Below are positions 3,553 to 32,412 of a stretch of DNA of 36,837 nucleotides, piece after piece. The stretch spans positions 1 through 36,837 of the IMG/VR virus record IMGVR_UViG_3300044557_000138; one strand, written 5' to 3'. This stretch comes from a virus. Within the stretch, counting starts at the first letter, position 1. Each line of letters begins with the position of its first letter. Below the pieces are notes generated by a model, which saw only the letters and a list, made by a program, of their open reading frames with translations, did no database searches and was not told the DNA's origin. The position numbers and the translations under genes were made by a program.

Positions 3553-6500
3553 CTACCACCTGTCCACTGCTGCTTTAGTGCGTGCGCTCCATATGTCGAG
3601 CACCGTGTCAGGGTCGGTGCCGCGCGCGTCGATTTTGGTGGTGACGGTCACGGTTTTGCCGAATGACCCTGAATTTAAGTTGGTACGCAATCTCGATGAA
3701 TCGTACTGTATACTTCCTGTCCGATTCATTTGGTTGAGGTTATCGATGCCGATGCGTTTCGCCGCCCACGCGCGCACGACATACTCCTGGTCGGACAGCA
3801 TCGTGGGGATACTGTCGCTCGTGGTCGTGCCCGGACCCATCACATACCCGCTGGGGCCGCCGGCAGCCAGGTGTTGGACTACACCACCTTCTGACCGGCG
3901 AACCAGACCGCCCGTAGAGTAGCCGAAAGCGGCTTTGACTTTGCCCCAGGCGTTGCCGACGAGGTTCGCGAAGAAGTTCGTCGTGTGGCTTTGCGGCACC
4001 GACCGCACGGCGCTGCTCGCGCTGCTTGCGCTCGACCAGATGCCACCGCTGTCGCCGCCGAAACCCGTATGGTGGTAGCCGGGCACGGACCTGATGTCGC
4101 CGCGTGCGCCTCCCGACGCGCCCGATACGCCACCATGGTCGCCACCGAAACCCGTGTGGTGATACCCCGGTACTGAGTAGATGGATCCCTTGGCTCCGTT
4201 TGAGGCGTTGTTGACGCCGTTTTTGTCGCCTCCGAATCCGGTGTGGTGGTAGCCGGGCACGGTTTTGATGGCGGCGCAGGAGCCGTTGACGACGTCTCGT
4301 ACGCCTTTGTTGCCGCCGGTGAGCTCGGTGTGGTGGCCTTTCGGGACCGCGTCGATATCACTGTGTGCCTTCTTGGCTTTGCTGACGGCATCATTGTTGT
4401 CGGCGGTGAGTAGTGACTTGACCTCCTTCGGGAGCTTGTCGTAGTTGATGTGCAGGTTGTTGGTATCACCGTTGGCCTGTGCGGTGAGCGCGTTCATGAC
4501 CGTGGTCTTCTGCTTCGGGGTCAGGTTGAGCGTGTCGAGATACGCTTGGACCTGACCTTTGGTCATGGCGGAGTTCTCCGTGATCTTCGTGCCGACGTTG
4601 CCGGGGATGAGTCCGAGCGTGTCCGCATAGGCGCCGGCCTGCTGTTCACTCATGCCCATGCTTTCCAGCGTCTGCATGAGCTGGTCGCGCATCTGCTGGA
4701 CTTCGTTCTTCGCCGCCTGCGTTGACTGCGCCATGGTGCCGTTGGCTTTCCCGTAGGCGAGCTGCTGCTGCACATTGGCCATGAGGGAATCCGTGGCCGA
4801 CTGGATTGCCTGGCTGCTCGCATCGGTCAGACCCTTGTTGTTCGACAGGTCGTCACCATTGGCTTTGAGCGTCGTGGACAGCTCGGAGAACTTCGACTGC
4901 ACCATAGAGGATGCCGAACTGATGCCCTGCGCGGTGGTGGAATAGTCGACCATCGCCTTGATGGTTTCCTTATAGGAGTCGCGCAGGCCTGACACGGTGT
5001 CCTTGATGGACTGCATCTTGGCCTTATACGTGCCGTTGATGGTGATACCGCTTCCGGCCGCATCGTTCAGCTGCTTCAACGCGCCGGAGTTACCTTCGAC
5101 CGCCTGTTGCACGGTGGACAGACTCGTGCCCGTGTCCCTGAGAAGAGCGGAGAGATTCGAGTCCTTGCCGAAGCTCGAGAGCTTGTCGATGAAACCTAGG
5201 TCACCGGTTTTGCCGGATTGCACGCTGCTCCAGAACGCGGTAGTGCTTTCCGCGCCACCACGCATCGCCTGACTGAACGCATCCGTCGTGGCCTTCGACT
5301 TCTCCTGCTGGTCGGCCATCGTCGCGAGATACCCGGTGACACCAAGGGCCGCGGCACCGAACATGACGCCCGCCGCGCTGAAACCGCCGACCGAAGATGA
5401 AAGCACGCCGGTCTTACCCGCGGCCCCTGCGGCCTTGGCACCGACCTGCTCTACTTTGCCTGCGGTGTGACCGAGACTCCCGGCGGCGGATTCGGCATTG
5501 CCCGCGGCGTCGGCCAGGGTGTCGGACAGCCCTGTGATGGCCTGCGTCTTCGACAGACGCTTCGACACCAGGTCGCCGATGGCACCGGATACCGAGCCGA
5601 TGCCGCCGGTCACGGTCTTGAGGATGTTGACAACGCCGCTGATCGGCGTGATGACGCTGCGCATCTGACCACCGAACAACACTGTCGCCGCGATGCCGGT
5701 CTGCACCGGCTGAGGCAGACGCTCGAATGTCTTGATGAGATCAGCGAGAATCGGCAGCACCGGCCGTACAAGATTCAACGTGGAACTTAACCCGTTGAGT
5801 CCGCGGTTGAGCAGGGAGAATCCCGAGTTCGCGCCCGTGAACGTCGACTTAACCGGTGAAACCGCGTCGATGACCTGCTTGACGCCACCAAGGATTCCCG
5901 AGAACGAGTCGAGCAGACGGTTCATGGTCGCGTCATCGATGTGGAATGCGGTCTGGAATGCTTTGGCGAACTGGTGCTTCTCCACCATGCCGCTGACGGA
6001 ATCCCAGGTCTTCGTGAACCATGAGGTGAACCCGGACAGTTTGTCCGTCGCGAAGTTGATGGCGCCGGTCAGCTGCGGTTTCAACGCGGTCAGCACGCTC
6101 TGGCCGAACCCGGTGACGGCGGCATGCCAGTTTCCGATGGCCCCTTCGAACGTGCTCGTCGACTGAGCGGCCTGCTTAGCCGCATCGGTCATGCCGAGAT
6201 CCATGATCGCCTTGTTGAATTCGTCGGCGGTGATCTGGCCCTTGGCCATCGCGTCACGGAAATTACCCGTGTAAGCGCCGTTCTTCTTCATCGCCTCCTG
6301 GAGCTTGCCGGAGGCTCCAGGGATGGCGTCGGCCATCTGATTCCAGTTTTCGGTCGTGAGCTTGCCCGCGCCGGCGGTCTGCGTGAGCACCATGCCCACG
6401 CTTTTGAACGTGTCGGCGTTGCCGCCCGCCACGGCATTGAGATTGCCGGCCGCTTCCGCGAGATCCCCATATCCTTTGACGCCGTTCGCCGCGAGCTGCG

Positions 6501-7350: not shown

Positions 7351-8053
7351 TCACCTCCGATGATCATTTCGTCCATGGCCAGCATGCCGGCGGCCATTGT
7401 CTCTTCGTCCGACGGTTCGTCGGACGGCGGATGGTAGGGGAGCAGGGATTGCGGTATCCCCTCGCGTAGGAGCCGCAGGTAATCCGGCCACGCCATGGGA
7501 TATGCGAAATCGTTGTGTTTCGCGCCCGTCATGGTGCCCGTGTCGGACAGGAGGGATGCGTACAGTGCGATCGCATCCCCGTAGCGCAGCCGGTCTCCCA
7601 CGTCCGTGGTCAGCGACCAGCCGAGTCGGGCGAAGTCCGCCGCTACTTCGCTGCGGGCCTCTTTGACTTGCCGGCGGAAGGCGAATATTTTCCCAGGCTC
7701 GCCAACTGCACCTTCTCGATGACGTCGGCGTACTTGTCGGCGATGCCGAGCAGCACGACCGACGGCTCAGCTTTGATGGTGTCGACCTGCTCCCGGTTCG
7801 CTTTGACCAGCAGCATGCGGATCTGCTCCACCGGCGTCATGTTCTCATCCGCCCCATCGAAATCACCGTCCGTGAGGTTCAGGGGAAGCCTGTACGTGTG
7901 ATCCGTGTACGTCCGTGCGAACAGGCTCGGATAACGTACGATATAGCGGCTGCGGGCCGATTCTCCCGCCTTGAGGATCTCATCGTCGAGGCTTTTCTCG
8001 TCCGCATGGACGAAATCGAGGTCGGTGGGTATGGTTTGCGTATGGTCACTCAT
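7347..8053 (-). CDS. Tail assembly chaperone G-T fusion made by a -1 programmed frameshift
   Basis: ORF 7347..7601 is in the -1 frame relative to 7643..8053. Reading from the GGGAAAA slip site in the -1 frame is open (GKIFAFRRQVKEARSEVAADFARLGWSLTTDVGDRLRYG...) into the 84-aa track ORF. Confidence 0.75.
7643..8053 (-). CDS. Tail assembly chaperone (G-like, 136 aa)
   Basis: ORF track. Lies between the major tail and tape measure genes; acidic protein. Canonical G/T arrangement. Confidence 0.8.
   Translation of the reverse strand: MSDHTQTIPTDLDFVHADEKSLDDEILKAGESARSRYIVRYPSLFARTYTDHTYRLPLNLTDGDFDGADENMTPVEQIRMLLVKANREQVDTIKAEPSVVLLGIADKYADVIEKVQLASLGKYSPSAGKSKRPAAK
7688..7694 (-). promoter_or_regulatory. 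-1 slippery heptamer G GGA AAA
   Basis: Plus strand ttttccc at 7688-7694. In the zero frame the codons are ctG GGA AAA, matching the X XXY YYZ pattern, 15 codons before the G stop. Confidence 0.75.
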
Positions 8054-17250: not shown

Positions 17251-17527
17251 GCGCTCGCCTCCTAGGTGGTGTTGCCCTGCTCTCGTCTGCCGGGGCGCTG
17301 AATGTTGTGGCGAGGCAGGGCAAGTGGGTGCCTGGTGGGGAAAGGTTGTAAAGACAACCAGGCAAGAATGTGCAGGCAGAGGCTTGGATACTGCTCTCGG
17401 AGTTATCCATTTGAGCTTGCCTGCTGGTACTGGCTCGCATTGCTATGTCAACGTTCGCCAGCGACATGCGCCCCGGACGCACCGGAGCGTGTCTGCGTTA
17501 GGCAGCACTTCATAGATGTGTTGCCAG

Positions 17528-17595
17528 TTCCTCTGGCGGGAATCGAACCCGCATACCCGGCATGGAGCCGGAGTCGCCTAACCGACCACAGAGGT
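17528..17595 (-). tRNA. tRNA-like element, non-canonical. Best read as Trp (CCA anticodon loop CUCCAUG).
   Basis: Minus strand: ACCTCTG TG GTCG GTTAGG CGAC TCCGG CTCCATG CCGGG TAT GCGGG TTCGATT CCCGC CAGAGGA A. The T-arm is perfect and the acceptor has 6 bp plus an A:A mismatch, but the D-loop is short, position 37 is U, the variable loop is 3 nt and no CCA is encoded. Confidence 0.4.
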
Positions 17596-24128: not shown

Positions 24129-24484
24129 GACGTGGGCTCCTCGTTGATAGTGACCGTCTTGAACTCATAAGATGCAGCGACGTTTTCAGCGAGGGAGTAA
24201 CGACTCACGTCATCTAGGATGGTGCCGTCGTTAGCAGTGAGCTTCTGCCATGGGAGCGGGGCGGTGCTCTTCTTCCAGATGGCACCGTACTTGTCCTTGT
24301 AAAACCCAGGATCGGTCGGCGCCTTCAGACGCGGACGCTCCGCTTCGGATAATGGGACCTCATTGCCGTCCTTCATCTTCCGTTCCTTTCGTTGTGTCAT
24401 TCCGCTGAATGCGACTCCGGCGATACCGTTGATGGTGTTCTTCCCGCCCATGCGCGGATGCGCGAAACCAATCGGATCAAGCAT
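24122..24484 (-). CDS. Hypothetical protein (120 aa or shorter)
   Basis: ORF track. The start is uncertain: an internal ATG (MKDGNEV...) has the better AAAGGAACGGAAG context. Confidence 0.5.
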   Translation of the reverse strand: MLDPIGFAHPRMGGKNTINGIAGVAFSGMTQRKERKMKDGNEVPLSEAERPRLKAPTDPGFYKDKYGAIWKKSTAPLPWQKLTANDGTILDDVSRYSLAENVAASYEFKTVTINEEPTSC

Positions 24485-25361
24485 TGTGAGCCTCTTCTGT
24501 CTGCGTAGCCTCGGCTGCTTCCGGCTCCTGCGCTTCCGGCGCGGCCTCGATTGCCGCCTGAGGCTCGTCGTCGATGACAGGGCGGAACACGTCCGAATAG
24601 TCGGGCGTGGTCTCGTCCACTACTGTGGATTTCTTCGCTTCGACGGTCACTGGAAGATATTTGAACGATCGGCGTATCAGCGTTTTTAGACCCATTGCAA
24701 CGAAATCCGTCGCCCACGGGCCCGTGATCTGATTCCCCTTGTACTTGCTGCGCGGAGCGAAGCGCTCGCGGTAGGACGCAAGGTCCTTCGCGCTCATATA
24801 GTCCGCATATCTTCCTCCGTTCGGCAGCGCGACGGAAAGATAAACGAACGAAAGGTTTTCCACCGAGTGGTCGGCGTCGAGGTTGACCGACTCGGGGCAC
24901 TTGATGACTGGGTTGCCGTCGTCACCTAGGGTGAGCGTTATCCCGTCGTCTTTGTACACCGCTCTCGGCTGCGCGTATATACCGCTGTTCTCAAGCAGCT
25001 TGAGCATGCCCTTGAATCCGATAATGAACGTGGCTTCCTTCTGCCCCGTCTTGTAGTTCTTGTTGCCATACGGAAGGATGTACGCCTGTCCCAGACCGTC
25101 AACATTGCTTGGCTTCAGGCCAAGAGCTGCGCACTGCATGAAGCAGCTCAGCACTGAAACCGGGGTGCATTCCGCGAGCATGGGTTCGCGGTTTATGGCG
25201 CTTATACAGTATTGCAGCAGCGCGTCCGGGTCGAGGTTGTTGCCTATGACTCGCTGTATCTGCGGCCATGAGCGTCGCACCATGTCCTTGAGCTCGCGGC
25301 TTGGGTCGAGCCTCTGCATCTGCTGGCCTTGTGTCGCTTGTGATAGGTTCCCCATAATCAT
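24477..25361 (-). CDS. recT: RecT-family single-strand annealing protein (294 aa)
   Basis: RecT-like core (…ILPYGNK…, …GPWATDFVAMGLKTLIRR…). Paired with the upstream YqaJ exonuclease. Confidence 0.8.
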   Translation of the reverse strand: MIMGNLSQATQGQQMQRLDPSRELKDMVRRSWPQIQRVIGNNLDPDALLQYCISAINREPMLAECTPVSVLSCFMQCAALGLKPSNVDGLGQAYILPYGNKNYKTGQKEATFIIGFKGMLKLLENSGIYAQPRAVYKDDGITLTLGDDGNPVIKCPESVNLDADHSVENLSFVYLSVALPNGGRYADYMSAKDLASYRERFAPRSKYKGNQITGPWATDFVAMGLKTLIRRSFKYLPVTVEAKKSTVVDETTPDYSDVFRPVIDDEPQAAIEAAPEAQEPEAAEATQTEEAHNA

Positions 25362-26308
25362 TTCTCCTTGATCTCACTCGTTCGAAGAACCCGCGCATCA
25401 TGAGCCGGTCTGAACGATTCCTTGTAATGCGTTGTCTTGTAAGTGACCTGATACCGTGCCGATCTCAACCCTGAATGCTCACCGACCATCGGCTTCAACT
25501 GATTGGAGATGGCCTCTTTCCGTTTTTTCAACTCGGATTGTTCGCTTGAGATGCGCGTGTACTCTTCCGCGAGACTGTCGAATTCATTCGAATCGGCATC
25601 CTCGATATCGCCATCATCCTGCGGGTAGAGCTCGTCCACGTCCATGCCGGTGAGCTGGGGCGTCTCGTCGCGCTCGACGAAACCCCAGAACGTCTCGGCC
25701 GCTTTGACCACGGCCGCGATATCATCCTCGTCGCGTGTGAACTCGACCTCGACGGGGCTGGACTCCCCGATGTCGGCCACGAAAACGCCCCACGAGAAGC
25801 CGGTGACCGCCAGATAGTGGGTCACCTGCGCCATGTAATACGAGGGCGCTATCAGGTTCCCGTCATCGTCATACCAGTCGTTCGAACGGTAGGCGCTGGC
25901 GGTCTTGCATTCCAGGACGCCGAGGCCGCGCGAATCGCCTGCGATAACACCATCCAGCGAGGCGATCATATGAGGGTGCTCCCTCGACGTGAGGCTCACA
26001 TCCGTGCCCGAAACCACTCTGAGATCGCGGTGATTACGCCGATACCAGCGGCGCAGCTCATTCTCCAGAAGATTGCCTTTGATGATGGGCCAGTGTCCCG
26101 AGATGTCCTTGGGATCGACACGACCCGTCTTCTCAAGCCATAGCTCGTAGGGCGACGAATACTTGTTGAGCCCCATGATCGTGCCCATATCCGAGCCGCC
26201 GATGCCTTGGCTGCGATGGGCGAGCCACTGGGCCTCGCGCTCCGCCGCCGTTCGAGCCTTGAAACGCCGCACAGCGAACAAGCTGTTGCTTTGCAATATG
26301 GCGCTCAT
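25358..26308 (-). CDS. YqaJ / lambda-Exo-like recombination exonuclease (316 aa)
   Basis: GIGGSDMGTIMGLNKYSSPYELWLEKTG is the YqaJ signature. I prefer ATG 26308 (GAAGGAAG upstream) to the track start at 26377. Confidence 0.8.
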   Translation of the reverse strand: MSAILQSNSLFAVRRFKARTAAEREAQWLAHRSQGIGGSDMGTIMGLNKYSSPYELWLEKTGRVDPKDISGHWPIIKGNLLENELRRWYRRNHRDLRVVSGTDVSLTSREHPHMIASLDGVIAGDSRGLGVLECKTASAYRSNDWYDDDGNLIAPSYYMAQVTHYLAVTGFSWGVFVADIGESSPVEVEFTRDEDDIAAVVKAAETFWGFVERDETPQLTGMDVDELYPQDDGDIEDADSNEFDSLAEEYTRISSEQSELKKRKEAISNQLKPMVGEHSGLRSARYQVTYKTTHYKESFRPAHDARVLRTSEIKEK

Positions 26309-26432
26309 GCTTTTCTTCCTTCGTTTCGTAGTGTTTTGATTAACCGGTAGATCGCGTTCGGATAGTTCTCGAACCATGCGAGCGGATACGGGCTTTCCGC
26401 GAGACTGCGGGCGAGCTAGATATCGGAATATC

Positions 26433-28113: not shown

Positions 28114-28142
28114 TTGCATATTTAACGCATATGCGGTATCAT
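28114..28142 (+). promoter_or_regulatory. Repressor promoter (TTGCAT, 17-nt spacer, TATCAT)
   Basis: TTGCAT at 28114-19 and TATCAT at 28137-42. The spacer contains O3. Confidence 0.55.
28123..28138. promoter_or_regulatory. Operator O3: TAACGCATATGCGGTA (15 of 16 positions palindromic)
   Basis: Read directly. Shares the core CGCATATGCG with O1 and O2. Confidence 0.7.
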
Positions 28143-28166
28143 GAAGACGTGGTTAGAAACAATGAG

Positions 28167-28412
28167 ATGGCACCCGTAAGTGCCACGACAAAGGTAATAG
28201 CGGAAACCACGCGCGGGCTGATCGAAGCCGAGGGACTATCCCAAGAACAGGTGGGAAAGCTGCTAGGCAGGTCGCAAAGCTACGTATCCACGAGGATCAA
28301 AGGCTTGCAACCTTGGACCACCGAGGATATAGACGTATTGGCCAAGCACTTCGGGCTTGGCAATGCCTTTGGCCTAATCGATAAGGCTCGCGGGATAATA
28401 GAAAGGAAGTAG
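28167..28412 (+). CDS. XRE-family HTH repressor (CI-like function, 81 aa, no peptidase domain)
   Basis: HTH: SQEQVGKLLGRSQSYVSTRIKG. The track start at 28131 lies inside O3 and the -10, so ATG 28167 (MAPVSATTK...) is preferred. Confidence 0.7.
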   Translation: MAPVSATTKVIAETTRGLIEAEGLSQEQVGKLLGRSQSYVSTRIKGLQPWTTEDIDVLAKHFGLGNAFGLIDKARGIIERK

Positions 28413-28492
28413 TAAGATTACATCGCGCACCTCCGGGTGTGTCTCATCGGGGCTTGTTTGTTCTTACCGGGATTGGCAAGCCCCATTACATT

Positions 28493-28534
28493 GTCTTCAC
28501 ACTTTGTTCGAACGTCTTCACATTTTGTTCGAAC
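28493..28534. repeat. 21-bp tandem direct repeat GTCTTCACA(C/T)TTTGTTCGAAC x2 upstream of the Ltp-like gene
   Basis: Read directly; one mismatch between the copies. Each copy contains TTCGAA. Confidence 0.85.
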
Positions 28535-28643
28535 AAGTGATTTGAGATTACGACGGAAACAAGACAAACACAGCACGCCAAACCAGCGTGTCGCGTTATG
28601 ATTTTCCCGGGCGACAGCGCCCGAGAATGAGGAAGGAATAATC

Positions 28644-29213
28644 ATGAGCGAAGCTCAGCAACCAATACAACAGCCGACACAACCACAGGGACCACGGAAG
28701 AAGGCGAAGAAGCCTCTCCTCAAGCGCGTGTGGTTCTGGCTGCTGGTAATCGTCGCGGTTTTCGTCATCTACTCGATAGCCACGTCCGGCAACTCGGGTT
28801 CGACGGCCAGCAGCACCGGCACCACCTCATCCGCGAGCGCACCAGCCAGCAGCAGCGCGAAAGCCCCTGCGAGCGCGACCCCCAGCAAAAGCGCCACGGC
28901 GTCGGTTCCAGCCGAGTATACGAGCGCGTTGACCACTGCCGGTCAGTACTCCGACTCCATGTATATGAGCCGTCAGGGCATCTATGATCAGCTGACCAGC
29001 GCGGACGGCGACAAGTTCTCGGCTGCGGCGGCACAGTACGCCGTGGACAATCTCAAGGCGGACTACAACGCCAACGCGCTTGCCACTGCGAAGCAGTACC
29101 AGTCGCAGATGTCGATGTCACCGGCTGCGATCCACGATCAGCTCACCAGTCAGGATGGCGACAAGTTTACCTCGTCGGAAGCCGATTACGCCGTTCAGCA
29201 CCTCAACGACTGA
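28644..29213 (+). CDS. Ltp-like superinfection-exclusion protein, membrane anchored (189 aa)
   Basis: N-terminal TM helix (VWFWLLVIVAVFVIYSIA), S/T/A linker, then two Ltp-type repeats (QYSDSMYMSRQGIYDQLTSADGDKFSAAAAQYAVDNL and QYQSQMSMSPAAIHDQLTSQDGDKFTSSEADYAVQHL). Confidence 0.75.
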   Translation: MSEAQQPIQQPTQPQGPRKKAKKPLLKRVWFWLLVIVAVFVIYSIATSGNSGSTASSTGTTSSASAPASSSAKAPASATPSKSATASVPAEYTSALTTAGQYSDSMYMSRQGIYDQLTSADGDKFSAAAAQYAVDNLKADYNANALATAKQYQSQMSMSPAAIHDQLTSQDGDKFTSSEADYAVQHLND

Positions 29214-29232
29214 CCACGCCGTCCCGTTGCAT

Positions 29233-29258
29233 AGCCCCGTTTCGGCGGGGCTTTTCCT
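29233..29258 (+). terminator. Intrinsic terminator after the Ltp-like gene
   Basis: AGCCCCG tttcgg CGGGGCT followed by TTTTCC. Confidence 0.7.
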
Positions 29259-29271
29259 TTGCCTGTGATTT

Positions 29272-29291
29272 TGTGGTACCACTGTGGTACC
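29272..29291 (+). repeat. Arm-type direct repeats TGTGGTACCAC x2 (left arm of attP candidate 1)
   Basis: 11-bp period. The same motif recurs at 29531-29557 on the other side of the tRNA-Lys fragment. Confidence 0.7.
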
Positions 29292-29396
29292 TTTTCGTGT
29301 TTCCGGGGGTTTTCGTGCGCGTGCTAGGATTGGTCTTAGCCCTTGTCGCGCAAGCGGTTGGGGCGCATCGGCATTTTGGCCCGCGGGTTCCGTAGC

Positions 29397-29447
29397 AGCT
29401 GACTCTTAATCAGCGTGTCCGGGGTTCGAATCCCCGCGGGGGCACCA
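29397..29447 (+). other. attP core candidate 1: 3' part of a tRNA-Lys (anticodon CTT) including CCA
   Basis: A GCTGA CTCTTAA TCAGC GTGTC CGGGG TTCGAAT CCCCG CGGGGGC A CCA. There is no proper D-arm upstream, so this is a fragment and not a gene. Confidence 0.7.
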
Positions 29448-29530
29448 GCCAAATGGCCGGAAACGTTGAAATACCAACGATTCCGGCCATTCCCATTATG
29501 CAGGTGCCATACACTTGATACACACTTGTT

Positions 29531-29557
29531 TGTGGTACCACTGTGGTACCACTGTGA
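29531..29557 (+). repeat. Arm-type direct repeats TGTGGTACCAC x2.5 (right arm of attP candidate 1)
   Basis: Read directly. Ends 13 nt before the integrase ATG. Confidence 0.7.
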
Positions 29558-29569
29558 TGGGAGACGCGA

Positions 29570-31042
29570 ATGCCGCACCGCAAAGCATCCAACGGACGAA
29601 TAAACCCGTTCAGGGTAGCCAAGAAACGCAGTATCAGGGACGGGACCGAGAAGGAGTACACGGTCTGGCGGGCCAAGATCGATGTCGGTGAGACCAGAAC
29701 TGGGGCGCGCAGGCAGCGCACGGTCGAAGCGCCCACCCGGCGCGAATGCGAAGCCAAGGCGCGCGACATGCTCAAGGAGATACGCGACTACGGCGTAGCC
29801 GCCGACCGGCACGCGACCCTCGGCAAGTACGCGCGGCAATGGCTCAAGACCAAGATGGAGATGGTGGACCACAAGTCGTACCAGACCTACGAGACCGCCG
29901 TGTACGTGCATCTCGCCGACTATCTCGACACCCCGCTATCCAAATTCACGCCGACGATGGTCACCGGCATCCTGCGCGACGCGAAGGCCCATGACAAGCG
30001 CGGACGGGAGACCGGGCCGGCCGGCACGAGCGCGCGGCGCAAGATCAAGACCACGCTCGGCCAGATCATGAAGCTCGCCGTGGCCGACGGCATCATCAAA
30101 AGCAATCCCGTCGATGCGGCGGTCATCCCCGTCAGCTCCGACGTGGCGGCGAAAGAGCTGGCCCGTCAGCGCGAGGCGTTCACCGAACAGCAGGTGCGCG
30201 CCATGCTCGACGCGGCGGCGGGCCTCGGCATCGTCAGGCAGGCGAGGTGGTGGATGCGCATACTGAGCGCGATGCGTCAGGGCGAGACGCTGGGCGCGCG
30301 CATAGACGATCTCGCGTTCGTGCCGCAGGTCGTGCCCGTCGAGGTCGAGACGCAGGAGCCGCAGACCGTGACCATCACCGACGATCAGGGCGTGGAGCGG
30401 ACCGGCACCATCATGCGCAGGAGCGTGAAGAGCGTGGACAAGCGCGTTCTCGCAGCCGAATACCAGGTCAATTGGAAGCTTCAGGAGATTCCGAAGACGC
30501 ACGGCTGCGGGGAGCCGGAGAACGGACGCTACCCGTGCGGGCGGAAAAGGGGCGTGGACTGCCCGTATTCCAGGTGGCGCGTCCCCGAGGGGTACGACAT
30601 GCTGCCGGTGCGGGGAAGATGGTGCCTGAGCCGCCCGAAGAGCCATACAGGGCGCATCGTGCCATTGGTGCCCATGCTCGCGCAATTATTGGCCGCTTAC
30701 ATGAAGGAGACGGAGCAGTGGCCGAATCCTGCTGGCCTCCTGTTCCGGCACGAGGATGGTTCGCCCATCACGCCGAGGGAGGACTCCGAGGAGTTCCAGT
30801 CGCTGCTTCTCGCTGCCGGGGTCGAGCATCCCGAGCGGCGCACCACGCATGAGCTGCGGCATTCGATAGTGACGCTTCTGGCGCGCATGGGGGTGCCGTA
30901 TTCGATGATCAAGCAGATCGTCGGCCATTCCAGCGATGCGATGATCGAGCATTACCGTCATGCGGATGCCGGAGAGCGGCTAAGGGCGATGGAGACGCTG
31001 GACGGCGTTCTGGGCTTGAAGGAATTAGACGATTGCCGATAA
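29570..31042 (+). CDS. int: Tyrosine integrase (490 aa)
   Basis: C-terminal HELRHSIVTLLARMG...GHSSDAMIEHYRH (HxxR, GH, catalytic Y pattern). GGGAGA lies upstream of the ATG; adjacent to the att-like sites. Confidence 0.9.
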   Translation: MPHRKASNGRINPFRVAKKRSIRDGTEKEYTVWRAKIDVGETRTGARRQRTVEAPTRRECEAKARDMLKEIRDYGVAADRHATLGKYARQWLKTKMEMVDHKSYQTYETAVYVHLADYLDTPLSKFTPTMVTGILRDAKAHDKRGRETGPAGTSARRKIKTTLGQIMKLAVADGIIKSNPVDAAVIPVSSDVAAKELARQREAFTEQQVRAMLDAAAGLGIVRQARWWMRILSAMRQGETLGARIDDLAFVPQVVPVEVETQEPQTVTITDDQGVERTGTIMRRSVKSVDKRVLAAEYQVNWKLQEIPKTHGCGEPENGRYPCGRKRGVDCPYSRWRVPEGYDMLPVRGRWCLSRPKSHTGRIVPLVPMLAQLLAAYMKETEQWPNPAGLLFRHEDGSPITPREDSEEFQSLLLAAGVEHPERRTTHELRHSIVTLLARMGVPYSMIKQIVGHSSDAMIEHYRHADAGERLRAMETLDGVLGLKELDDCR

Positions 31043-31055
31043 TCCCCTTTCGCGC

Positions 31056-31083
31056 GGAACAACGCGGCTTGCCGCGTTGTTCC
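31056..31083 (+). terminator. 12-bp perfect hairpin after int
   Basis: GGAACAACGCGG cttg CCGCGTTGTTCC. Only a weak T-tract follows. Confidence 0.55.
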
Positions 31084-31108
31084 GCGTTTGGCGGCGTTTG
31101 GCGGCGTT
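31074..31108 (+). repeat. GCGTT motif repeated 4 times at an exact 10-bp period
   Basis: GCGTT at 31074, 31084, 31094 and 31104 (GCGTTGTTCC GCGTTTGGCG GCGTTTGGCG GCGTTCCGCC). Confidence 0.8.
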
Positions 31109-31190
31109 CCGCCATTTTCGGTTGGCTGTAGAAATTGAGCTATGGCAGCAGTCTGACGCTCAAGAATGGCGGAATTGCAACGTTTTCAAA

Positions 31191-31240
31191 GGAGCGGATG
31201 ACGGGAATCGAACCCGCGTAATCAGTTTGGAAGACTGAGC
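31191..31240 (-). other. attP core candidate 2 or att scar: 3' part of a tRNA-Gly (anticodon TCC)
   Basis: Minus strand: TCAGT CTTCCAA ACTGA TTAC GCGGG TTCGATT CCCGT CATCCGC T CC. The U73 discriminator is typical of bacterial tRNA-Gly. There is no D-arm upstream. Confidence 0.65.
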
Positions 31241-31282
31241 ACGATACGCAGTGACACACTCTCCTAATAAACATTCGCAACG

Positions 31283-31304
31283 TAACTACGGCCTAACTAC
31301 GCCC
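31283..31304 (+). repeat. 11-bp tandem direct repeat TAACTACG(G/C)CC x2
   Basis: Read directly. Lies 42 nt beyond the tRNA-Gly fragment. Confidence 0.8.
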
Positions 31305-31344
31305 TATTATTATTCGCACCTAACACATCTGCTACGCTTATCCC

Positions 31345-31554
31345 ATGATCGACGACGAGGCCGAGCAGCTGGAGCAGCTGAGGCGAGACAGGCTTGCCGA
31401 GGCCGAGCGTTGGTTGCGGAAGCTGGTGCGCGATGGGCTGCTGACGGCGGAGACTTACGGCAGGATATGGATGGTGTTGCATACTGAGTCGGCGCGGCTC
31501 GTCGAGATCGAGCGGGCGCGAGGGGTACACGGGGCGCGGGAAATCGAATTGTGA
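31345..31554 (+). CDS. Hypothetical helical protein (69 aa)
   Basis: ORF track. No clear RBS. Charged, helical sequence. Confidence 0.4.
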   Translation: MIDDEAEQLEQLRRDRLAEAERWLRKLVRDGLLTAETYGRIWMVLHTESARLVEIERARGVHGAREIEL

Positions 31555-31651
31555 AGGTTTTCGGATTCCATGCCATCTGACTTGCATTACTCGGTTAAAC
31601 GAGTATTATAAGGAGTGTCAGCAAGGATACACACCAAGCAAAGGACATGAC

Positions 31652-31933
31652 ATGCAGCAAGTAAACAGCACCAAGGAAGCCATCGACTACATCAACGGCA
31701 TGATCGATTTCCTCAAAGCCGACTACGATCCCACGAACCAGCTCTTCCCCGGAACACCGAACGGCATCTTCGCCGCCATCCGCGTCGATGAGGACGGACT
31801 GCCCCACGATTACGTTGCCCACGTCGACTACTCCGCCGAAAAGGACATGATCTCCGCCGACGACGGCAAGTGGGTCGGACGCGACCAGCTTACCGGCATC
31901 GTCACCAAGGCCCTCGCTGGGAGCAATCGATGA
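31652..31933 (+). CDS. Hypothetical protein (93 aa)
   Basis: ORF track. AAAGGA lies 7 nt upstream. The stop overlaps the next ATG (ATGA). Confidence 0.55.
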   Translation: MQQVNSTKEAIDYINGMIDFLKADYDPTNQLFPGTPNGIFAAIRVDEDGLPHDYVAHVDYSAEKDMISADDGKWVGRDQLTGIVTKALAGSNR

Positions 31934-32412
31934 GCGACATCACGCTGGCGGAATACGCCAAAAGAAACGGGCGTACGGCCGACACCGCCACGCAAAGGGC
32001 GAGGCGAGGCGCGTTCGCCACCGCGCACAAGGTCGGCAGACAGTGGATGATCGACGAAAACGAGGAGTGGTCGGACGCGCGAAGGAAAGAGGAGCCGAGA
32101 AAAATGATGTGGTTCGGAGTCGAGGCGCTACCGCCGTACGCCGTCAACATGGTCAACAGCAGCGGCAACCCGGTGGGCGACCTGCACGCATTTGACAGCG
32201 AGGAGGAGGCGAAACGCTGGAATCAGGAGGACCGATACATCGGGGGCACCTACAACCGCTATCTGCTCGACCGGCGCAAAGCAAAGAAGATGATGATGGC
32301 GCGCATTATGGGAAGAATCGACGACCTGCCCGAGGAGATGCGCGGCGACGTCAAGAAATGGGATGACGAAAGCCTCTACAGCGCGTACAGCTGGGTGACG
32401 GTCCGGCAATAG
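31930..32412 (+). CDS. Excisionase/MerR-like HTH domain protein (160 aa), a candidate recombination directionality factor or regulator
   Basis: Track ORF trimmed to ATG 31930 (ATGA overlap). The N-terminus ITLAEYAKRNGRTADTATQRARRGAFATAHKVGRQWMIDENE fits the excisionase-type winged HTH pattern. Confidence 0.5.
   Translation: MSDITLAEYAKRNGRTADTATQRARRGAFATAHKVGRQWMIDENEEWSDARRKEEPRKMMWFGVEALPPYAVNMVNSSGNPVGDLHAFDSEEEAKRWNQEDRYIGGTYNRYLLDRRKAKKMMMARIMGRIDDLPEEMRGDVKKWDDESLYSAYSWVTVRQ

Follow-up and report, generated by a model that had tools for sequence, protein, structure and literature searches.

Why should a temperate phage with a single integrase gene carry fragments of two different tRNA genes, one on each side of that gene? 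This question is raised by the integration region of virus record IMGVR_UViG_3300044557_000138 (36,837 nucleotides analysed in full, hereafter the window), at positions 29,272 to 31,304. An initial annotation, made from the letters alone, had described there two phage attachment sites (attP-like sites) built on tRNA 3'-half mimics, a tRNA-Lys(CTT) fragment upstream and a tRNA-Gly(TCC) fragment downstream of the integrase gene int. It had offered dual integration specificity, a swapped integration module that left the old attP behind, or a scar of imprecise excision as possible explanations. Comparison with related phage and host sequences shows that both tRNA fragments are real and that the two sites are not equivalent. 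As far as these comparisons can tell, the phage very probably combines a working Lys-type attP with an orphaned, partial Gly-type attP, devoid of an integrase and of its P' repeats, which a module swap left in place. The fragments themselves do not mimic tRNA structure; they copy the 3' parts of tRNA genes, as attPs usually do.

The Lys-type site and its integrase

The Lys fragment was correctly placed upstream of int on the plus strand. Positions 29395-29447 read AGC-A-GCTGA-CTCTTAA-TCAGC-GTGTC-CGGGG-TTCGAAT-CCCCG-CGGGGGC-A-CCA, and the 51 bp at 29395-29445, running from AGCAGCTG to GGGGGCAC, have an exact counterpart in an unoccupied bacterial attachment site (attB), the intact tRNA-Lys(CTT) gene of Bifidobacterium tibiigranuli TMW 2.2057 (L098). 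The same stretch is also identical to the tRNA in L006, a 6.8-kb metagenomic contig in which a complete tRNA-Lys(CTT) gene is followed directly by an int that is 99% identical to that of the window. Identity between the window and L006 begins exactly at AGCAGCTG (29395). Upstream of the equivalent point, L006 carries host DNA, namely a true tRNA 5' half and a flank that is about 90% identical to the B. tibiigranuli flank. We conclude that L006 is a left prophage junction (attL) at tRNA-Lys(CTT), formed by a sibling phage and not by the phage of the window itself. Another contig, L005 (59 kb), starts exactly at the first base of the Lys identity block, as is expected from an assembly-graph branch at a core.

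In the host, the tRNA-Lys(CTT) gene (L098, 2618-2692) has no encoded CCA (it ends in GGGGGCACTT) and the phage copy has one (29445-29447), so that integration would make the gene CCA-encoding. The exact 54-nt tRNA-Lys core including CCA had no match in the genome contigs collection. A search with the 5'-half pattern returned B. tibiigranuli and B. stellenboschense among many Streptomyces matches. No match to the P-arm/core junction was obtained in a metagenome scan, the JGI samples evidently lying outside that collection. Scans of viral contigs were likewise without a match, whether for the P-arm junction of the Lys site, for that of the Gly site or for relatives of the integrase (Int).

Both arms of the Lys site carry the direct repeat TGTGGTACCAC that the initial annotation had noted around the core. 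The window holds eight matches to it at no more than one mismatch, against 0.33 expected, and none of 100 shuffled sequences held as many. The site spans about 290 bp in total, with the repeat pairs about 115-145 bp to each side of the anticodon loop. In two relatives whose Int proteins are 75% (L153) and 88% (L154) identical to that of the window, the T-arm and acceptor sequences of the tRNA part differ, TTTGTGGTACCACTGTGGTACCAC is unchanged in the P' arm, and TGTGGTACCAC is invariant there while neighbouring bases vary. The repeats are thus present on both arms, enriched and conserved, and they are candidate arm-type sites to which Int would bind, putatively through its N-terminal domain.

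Direct reading of the C-terminal part of Int gives the motifs MRQGE, HELRHS, GHSS and EHY, which fit the tyrosine recombinase signature R...HxxR...H...Y. Its homologues are bifidobacterial without exception. Distant relatives (about 45% identity) also adjoin tRNA genes: an intact tRNA-Phe(GAA) in L157 and an inverted tRNA-Lys(CTT) fragment in L158, from Bifidobacterium sp. ESL0745. That the window holds only one integrase gene was confirmed by tblastn with a Gly-type integrase, which found no remnant in the window and left the 490-aa Int as the only integrase. A consensus scan of the arms found no sigma-70-type promoter for int or for the 69-aa open reading frame (ORF69). Together with its arms and gene, the site forms a terminator-bounded cassette of 1,845 bp (29234-31078). 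With a tyrosine recombinase bearing its catalytic motifs next to a core that equals the host attB in the 3' part of a tRNA gene, the Lys site is, on sequence grounds, the working attP of the phage. Downstream of the Lys-type int, L002 (11520-11680), L003, L006 and L007 have an AT-rich stretch and then about five tandem copies of the approximately 21-bp CTGCGGTCGTACAACCGTACC.

In the scheme that we propose, Int would recombine the Lys core with the host tRNA-Lys(CTT) gene. The crossover probably falls in the anticodon loop, between the anticodon-stem halves as core-type sites, by analogy with other tyrosine integrases that target tRNA genes, which Williams reportedly classified in 2002. The phage copy would then restore the 3' part of the tRNA and add the encoded CCA, and the prophage int would end up just downstream of the rebuilt tRNA.

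A tRNA-like fold of the Lys attP was considered and rejected, its minimum free energy (MFE) being no better than that of shuffled sequences (z = -0.55). The Rfam tRNA model scored 34.5 bits on the Lys site (29386-29444), only with the D arm deleted, and ARAGORN called neither the Lys nor the Gly fragment a tRNA. A cloverleaf complete with D arm and acceptor stem is found in neither fragment, and on the Gly 5' side no similarity was seen (p = 0.96). The weak acceptor-like 5' strands that had been reported for both fragments did not hold up: at the Gly arm the match is not above chance (p about 0.26), and at the Lys site the adjacent strand GGTTCCG is, by estimate, within chance. One stretch about 30 nt upstream of the Lys core stands out: 29339-29364 matches the tRNA-Lys 5' half at 18 of 26 positions (shuffle p about 0.0013), better than any other place in the window, and its MFE fold contains no cloverleaf. 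It is possibly the decayed trace of a captured whole tRNA gene.

The Gly-type fragment downstream of int

The assignment of the second fragment to the 3' half of tRNA-Gly(TCC), on the minus strand downstream of int, also stood. Positions 31191-31240 match the full tRNA-Gly(TCC) gene of L008 without a difference and an actinobacterial tRNA-Gly gene at 95.9% identity. The complete form of this site is found in L013 (IMGVR_UViG_3300044537_000117), where the P arm (GGGCGTAGTTA-GGCCGTAGTTA) is followed by the core and by a P' arm that runs on into GGACGTAGTAA-TGGCCGTACTTT. There, a 409-aa tyrosine integrase starts about 200 bp from the Gly core in the same direction as the tRNA; over 117 aa, this enzyme shares only about 30% identity with the window Int. 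A GGSCGTAGTTA-like tandem pair lies on each arm of L013, at 7421-7442 and 7652-7674. The window has the P-arm pair only, seen as two copies of TAACTACGSCC on the plus strand at 31283-31304, and the P' pair of L013 is missing. By count alone the retained pair is marginal, since 6 of 100 shuffles reach two matches; it is conserved in L013 and L025, in which it recurs on the other arm. The Gly site of the window (31083-31344) thus has a core identical to host tRNA and has neither a cognate integrase in the same genome nor repeats on two arms.

The matching attL is found in L008, where the complete tRNA-Gly gene is followed by TTTGAAAACGTTGCAATTCCGCC, the window's own variant, and then by a 418-aa int. 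Where the tRNA part ends on its 3' side, the window and L008 read CC-TTT, and host and L013 read CCA, the reverse of the Lys case. The tRNA-Gly(TCC) core is present in 25 viral contigs. Their P arms fall into at least five unrelated kinds, each of which has its own tandem pair of approximately 11-bp repeats, and two viral contigs hold both attL and the right junction (attR) at tRNA-Gly(TCC). This tRNA gene is a common target of Bifidobacterium phages.

The initial annotation had also assigned to the Gly site a fourfold GCGTT at a 10-bp period, so that each site would have its own phased direct repeats. Copies of GCGTT are indeed present at 31074, 31084, 31094 and 31104, but they do not form one designed array. 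The first copy sits within the int terminator hairpin (31053-31086), in its 3' arm, and is part of the Lys cassette, in which homology extends as far as 31078. Copies 2 to 4 lie in the Gly-type P' arm, with homology beginning at 31083; L013 natively has three copies, and copies 3 and 4 overlap a second, terminator-like hairpin at 31099-31114. The claim of separate repeat sets holds for TGTGGTACCAC and TAACTACGSCC and fails for GCGTT.

That Gly-type P arms might in general mimic the acceptor strand was examined in six arm families and rejected (p = 0.2-0.87). The P arm of L013 contains, at 7447-7454, the exact 5' acceptor strand of tRNA-Gly (GCGGATGT), and the window has GCGAATG at the equivalent place. 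ARAGORN calls L013 7462-7535 a full tRNA-Gly although its D-arm region is unrelated, and this is not general in Gly-type arms. A GenBank record labelled 'Bacteriophage sp.' and 'UNVERIFIED' (L001, MT835782.1) contains complete genes for tRNA-Gly and tRNA-Pro, adjoined by a 507-aa ORF that appears trigger-factor-like on reading of its putative product. The examined stretch resembles an actinobacterial chromosome, and no phage genes were recognised by eye in the ORF list over the 6 kb examined, for which no family search was made.

Origin of the two-site arrangement

The window was compared by blastn with the fetched relatives, and the region resolved into mosaic blocks. Positions 29234-31078 are 98.7% identical to L002, L003 and L004, JGI 59-kb phage contigs with a 99% identical Int, and positions 31083-31542 are 89% identical to the Bifidobacterium phage contigs L013 and L025; in L013-type phages the Gly fragment goes with a different integrase. 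The break between L002-like and L013-like sequence lies inside the 3' arm of the int terminator, and the left edge of the cassette lies in the terminator hairpin of ltp, the gene of a superinfection-exclusion lipoprotein. Microhomology between the parents at the right junction amounts to about 6 nt (CGCGTT). None of the Lys-Int phages L002, L003, L006, L007 and L154 has a Gly fragment downstream of int. The slot after ltp is occupied differently in two Logan contigs (L159, ltp at 3958-4527; L160, ltp at 393-962) that encode an Ltp protein 100% identical to that of the window. After the same ltp terminator, they carry a third cassette with TGTTGCAYAA repeats and a tRNA-Phe(GAA) 3' fragment, which makes this slot a recurrent exchange point.

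The backbone next to the cassette is 76-92% identical to either relative, as compared to 98.7% for the Lys cassette and its donors. From this difference we infer a recent import of the Lys cassette into a Gly-type backbone, in inverted orientation. The integration module of the genome would have been replaced by recombination, with the incoming Lys cassette in the opposite orientation taking the place of the Gly-type integrase and of the two P' arm repeats. What was left behind would be the core with its P arm and about 105 bp of P' arm, a remnant of a Gly-type module like that of L013, L025 and L008. Systems of the RecT/YqaJ type promote exchange at short or diverged homologies, and the RecT and YqaJ proteins encoded by the window could plausibly drive module exchange of this kind. 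The comparative data support the explanation by a swapped module, as proposed at the outset.

Several observations weigh against a module swap. An attR junction for the Lys site was not recovered, and an exact-sequence look-up did not find the window's own Int sequence on record. No independent contig spans 31078/31083 and the junction pattern was absent from the metagenome collection (the JGI samples evidently lie outside it), so the two-site arrangement rests on one assembly. It could in that case be an assembly chimera of an L002-type and an L013-type phage, as phages of the two parent types come from one series of samples and L155, a contig identical to the window on the right side, begins at 31100, only 17 nt from the junction. 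We regard a chimera as improbable: the shared 6 nt are far under assembler k-mer lengths, the int terminator of the window is a distinct variant of the L002 hairpin and not a splice of two parents, and the left boundary falls at a terminator that is a natural exchange point, as L159 and L160 show with their different cassette. The right boundary, like the left, coincides with a natural edge of a module. It also speaks against a swap that the orphan core shows no differences from host tRNA though its flanks differ by 11% from L013, which could hint at retained function. A recent swap from a donor such as L008, in which the TTT variant of the window is also present, would account for the intact core just as well. 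Lastly, the motif AACGTTGNAATNCC adjoins both cores and is left unexplained. It occurs exactly twice in the window (0.00 expected), once per attP, at 29462-29475 on the plus strand and 31171-31184 on the minus strand, a few nucleotides 3' of each tRNA fragment, each copy lying between the core and its cognate int. It is also present at L013 7541-7554 and L008 134-147, in a Gly-type attP and attL, and at L158 2399-2412, next to a 45%-identical Int. The motif could be an accessory-factor site, a promoter element or a sign of shared ancestry; homology between the arms of the two attPs is weak and confined to the P' arms (p = 0.024).

If the orphan core were functional, it might serve as a substrate in trans, with the Gly-type integrase of a co-resident element recombining it with attB, attL, attR or another attP, and with the relic and AACGTTGNAATNCC as a docking site for that integrase or for an accessory factor of a co-resident Gly-type prophage. 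The core is intact (50 of 50 positions to tRNA), as is the P-arm repeat pair, and a Gly-type phage (L013) and a Lys-type prophage (L006) share JGI sample 3300044537. Were this true, it would allow second-site integration, phage-phage recombination or site-specific shuffling of integration cassettes among Bifidobacterium phages. Use in trans and the docking role both seem unlikely to us: the P' arm-type pair of L013 is missing, integrative recombination in lambda and L5 requires arm sites on both arms, and no junction at a Gly site was found for the phage of the window. The orphan Gly site is most likely inert. That a single Int serves both sites would fit with two cores that each begin at the anticodon arm and reach the tRNA 3' end, with AACGTTGNAATNCC just beyond it in either case. 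Such dual specificity is very unlikely, given that the Gly fragment is missing from phages with a 99% identical Int, that the arm repeats (TGTGGTACCAC and GGSCGTAGTTA) and the core sequences are unrelated, that the P' repeats are lost, and that elsewhere another integrase, about 30% identical over 117 aa, is the cognate enzyme of the Gly site. We give almost no credence to a scar of imprecise excision, that is, host DNA from the tRNA-Gly locus. The Gly fragment is indeed identical to the 3' part of the host tRNA, but both of its flanks match the phage arms of the L013/L025 attP and are unlike the host sequence 3' of tRNA-Gly at attR junctions (for example ACTATATAGG... and ACTGCCACTT...), and the tRNA 5' half is absent (11/24, p = 0.96).

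Genome context and relation to known systems

The window (36.8 kb) reads as the complete, circularly permuted genome of a temperate siphophage with a Bifidobacterium host. Late genes (portal, capsid, tape measure, amidase) are on the minus strand, and the early genes include RecT, YqaJ and an antirepressor. The plus-strand lysogeny block, 28131-32412, holds an HTH (helix-turn-helix) repressor-like gene, the Ltp-type superinfection-exclusion lipoprotein gene, int and three small ORFs (Table 1). One of these, of 160 aa, had no Pfam match and is a weak candidate for a recombination directionality factor, judged by its similarity to excisionases. The sole complete tRNA that ARAGORN calls in the window is a phage tRNA-Trp(CCA) gene at 17527-17595 on the minus strand (Rfam, 33.5 bits), amid early and packaging genes.

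Table 1. Positions of the features in and around the integration region of the window
Feature	Position	Strand	Remarks
RecT annealing protein and YqaJ exonuclease	24477..26377	-	recombination pair
Ltp-type superinfection-exclusion lipoprotein	28644-29213	+	PF07553, E = 1.5e-40; PHROG 4980; just upstream of the Lys attP
Terminator hairpin after ltp	29233..29252	+	left boundary of the Lys cassette; L002-type homology from 29234
P-arm pair of 11-bp repeats TGTGGTACCAC	29270..29291	+	about 2 copies, the second truncated; same in L002/L003
tRNA-Lys 5'-half-like stretch	29339..29364	+	18/26 match (acceptor strand and D arm)
attP core, 3' part of tRNA-Lys(CTT)	29395..29447	+	D-stem 3' strand and anticodon arm through CCA
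Hairpin with 17-bp stem and motif AACGTTGAAATACC (29462-29475)	29452..29491	+	directly 3' of the tRNA end; kept in L153/L154
P'-arm repeats TGTGGTACCAC	29529..29561	+	2 full copies and a partial third (about 2.7 copies); end 9 bp before the int start codon
Tyrosine integrase, 490 aa	29570..31042	+	PF00589, E = 2e-21; PHROG integrase; 99% identical to P0001
int terminator, hairpin with perfect 16-bp stem	31053..31086	+	mosaic junction in the 3' arm
Retained core-proximal P' arm of the Gly-type attP	31083..31190	-	includes terminator-like hairpin 31099-31114 and motif AACGTTGCAATTCC (31171-31184); about 105 bp
Orphan attP core, 3' part of tRNA-Gly(TCC)	31191..31240	-	anticodon arm to C75, nt 26-75
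P arm of the Gly-type attP	31241..31344	-	tandem pair GGSCGTAGTTA (TAACTACGSCC on the + strand) at 31283-31304
69-aa ORF	31345..31554	+	travels with the Gly-type P arm; 80% identical to the L013 homologue
160-aa ORF	31930..32412	+	N-terminal excisionase-like helix-turn-helix; PHROG 629 excisionase, E = 3e-4

Complex attPs of tyrosine integrases that target tRNA genes have a lambda-type architecture, as in mycobacteriophage L5 at tRNA-Gly and pSAM2 at tRNA-Pro. The Lys site shares with the attPs of lambda, L5 and pSAM2 a core that corresponds to the tRNA from its anticodon arm onward to the 3' end, so that integration restores the gene, short direct repeats on each of the two arms in a span of about 290 bp, and an adjacent tyrosine recombinase gene that comes to lie just downstream of the rebuilt tRNA. 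It differs in the length of its Int (490 aa), which has an insertion in the catalytic region, the Pfam match being limited to residues 349-467.

Temperate phages are said, in the model of Hendrix and Hatfull, to be modular mosaics with junctions at gene boundaries, and De Paepe et al. reportedly found in 2014 that Rad52-like/RecT recombinases promote such mosaicism. The window agrees in its sharp breaks at terminators, in a cassette of 98.7% identity set in a more diverged backbone, and in its RecT and YqaJ genes. Nothing essential is different; the exchange is an instance of ordinary phage mosaicism, a well-known process that is documented unusually well in this case, and its conceptual weight is modest.

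The target of the Lys site, tRNA-Lys(CTT), is outside the bifidoprophage sites given in PMC6109161 (tmRNA, tRNA-Met and dnaJ2), a paper that also cites mycobacteriophage L5. In phages of Oenococcus oeni, several Int/attP types that use different tRNA genes occur in one phage population, with 10-bp direct repeats as putative arm sites and with evidence of attP regions being reshuffled and sharing ancestry, according to PMC8074189. The window differs in that it physically retains part of the old attP beside the new cassette, and no such relic was found in the passages of that paper that were examined. Literature searches for a remnant or second attP returned mainly genome-engineering papers.

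These data document a tRNA-Lys(CTT) attP/Int pair for Bifidobacterium phages, of which sibling cassettes use tRNA-Gly(TCC) and tRNA-Phe(GAA). The relic attP would be a fossil of the module swap, fixing the place of the exchange (at terminators), its orientation and its recency. The 1.8-kb cassette, with its core, arm repeats and int, could serve as a starting point for integration vectors for kefir-type bifidobacteria.

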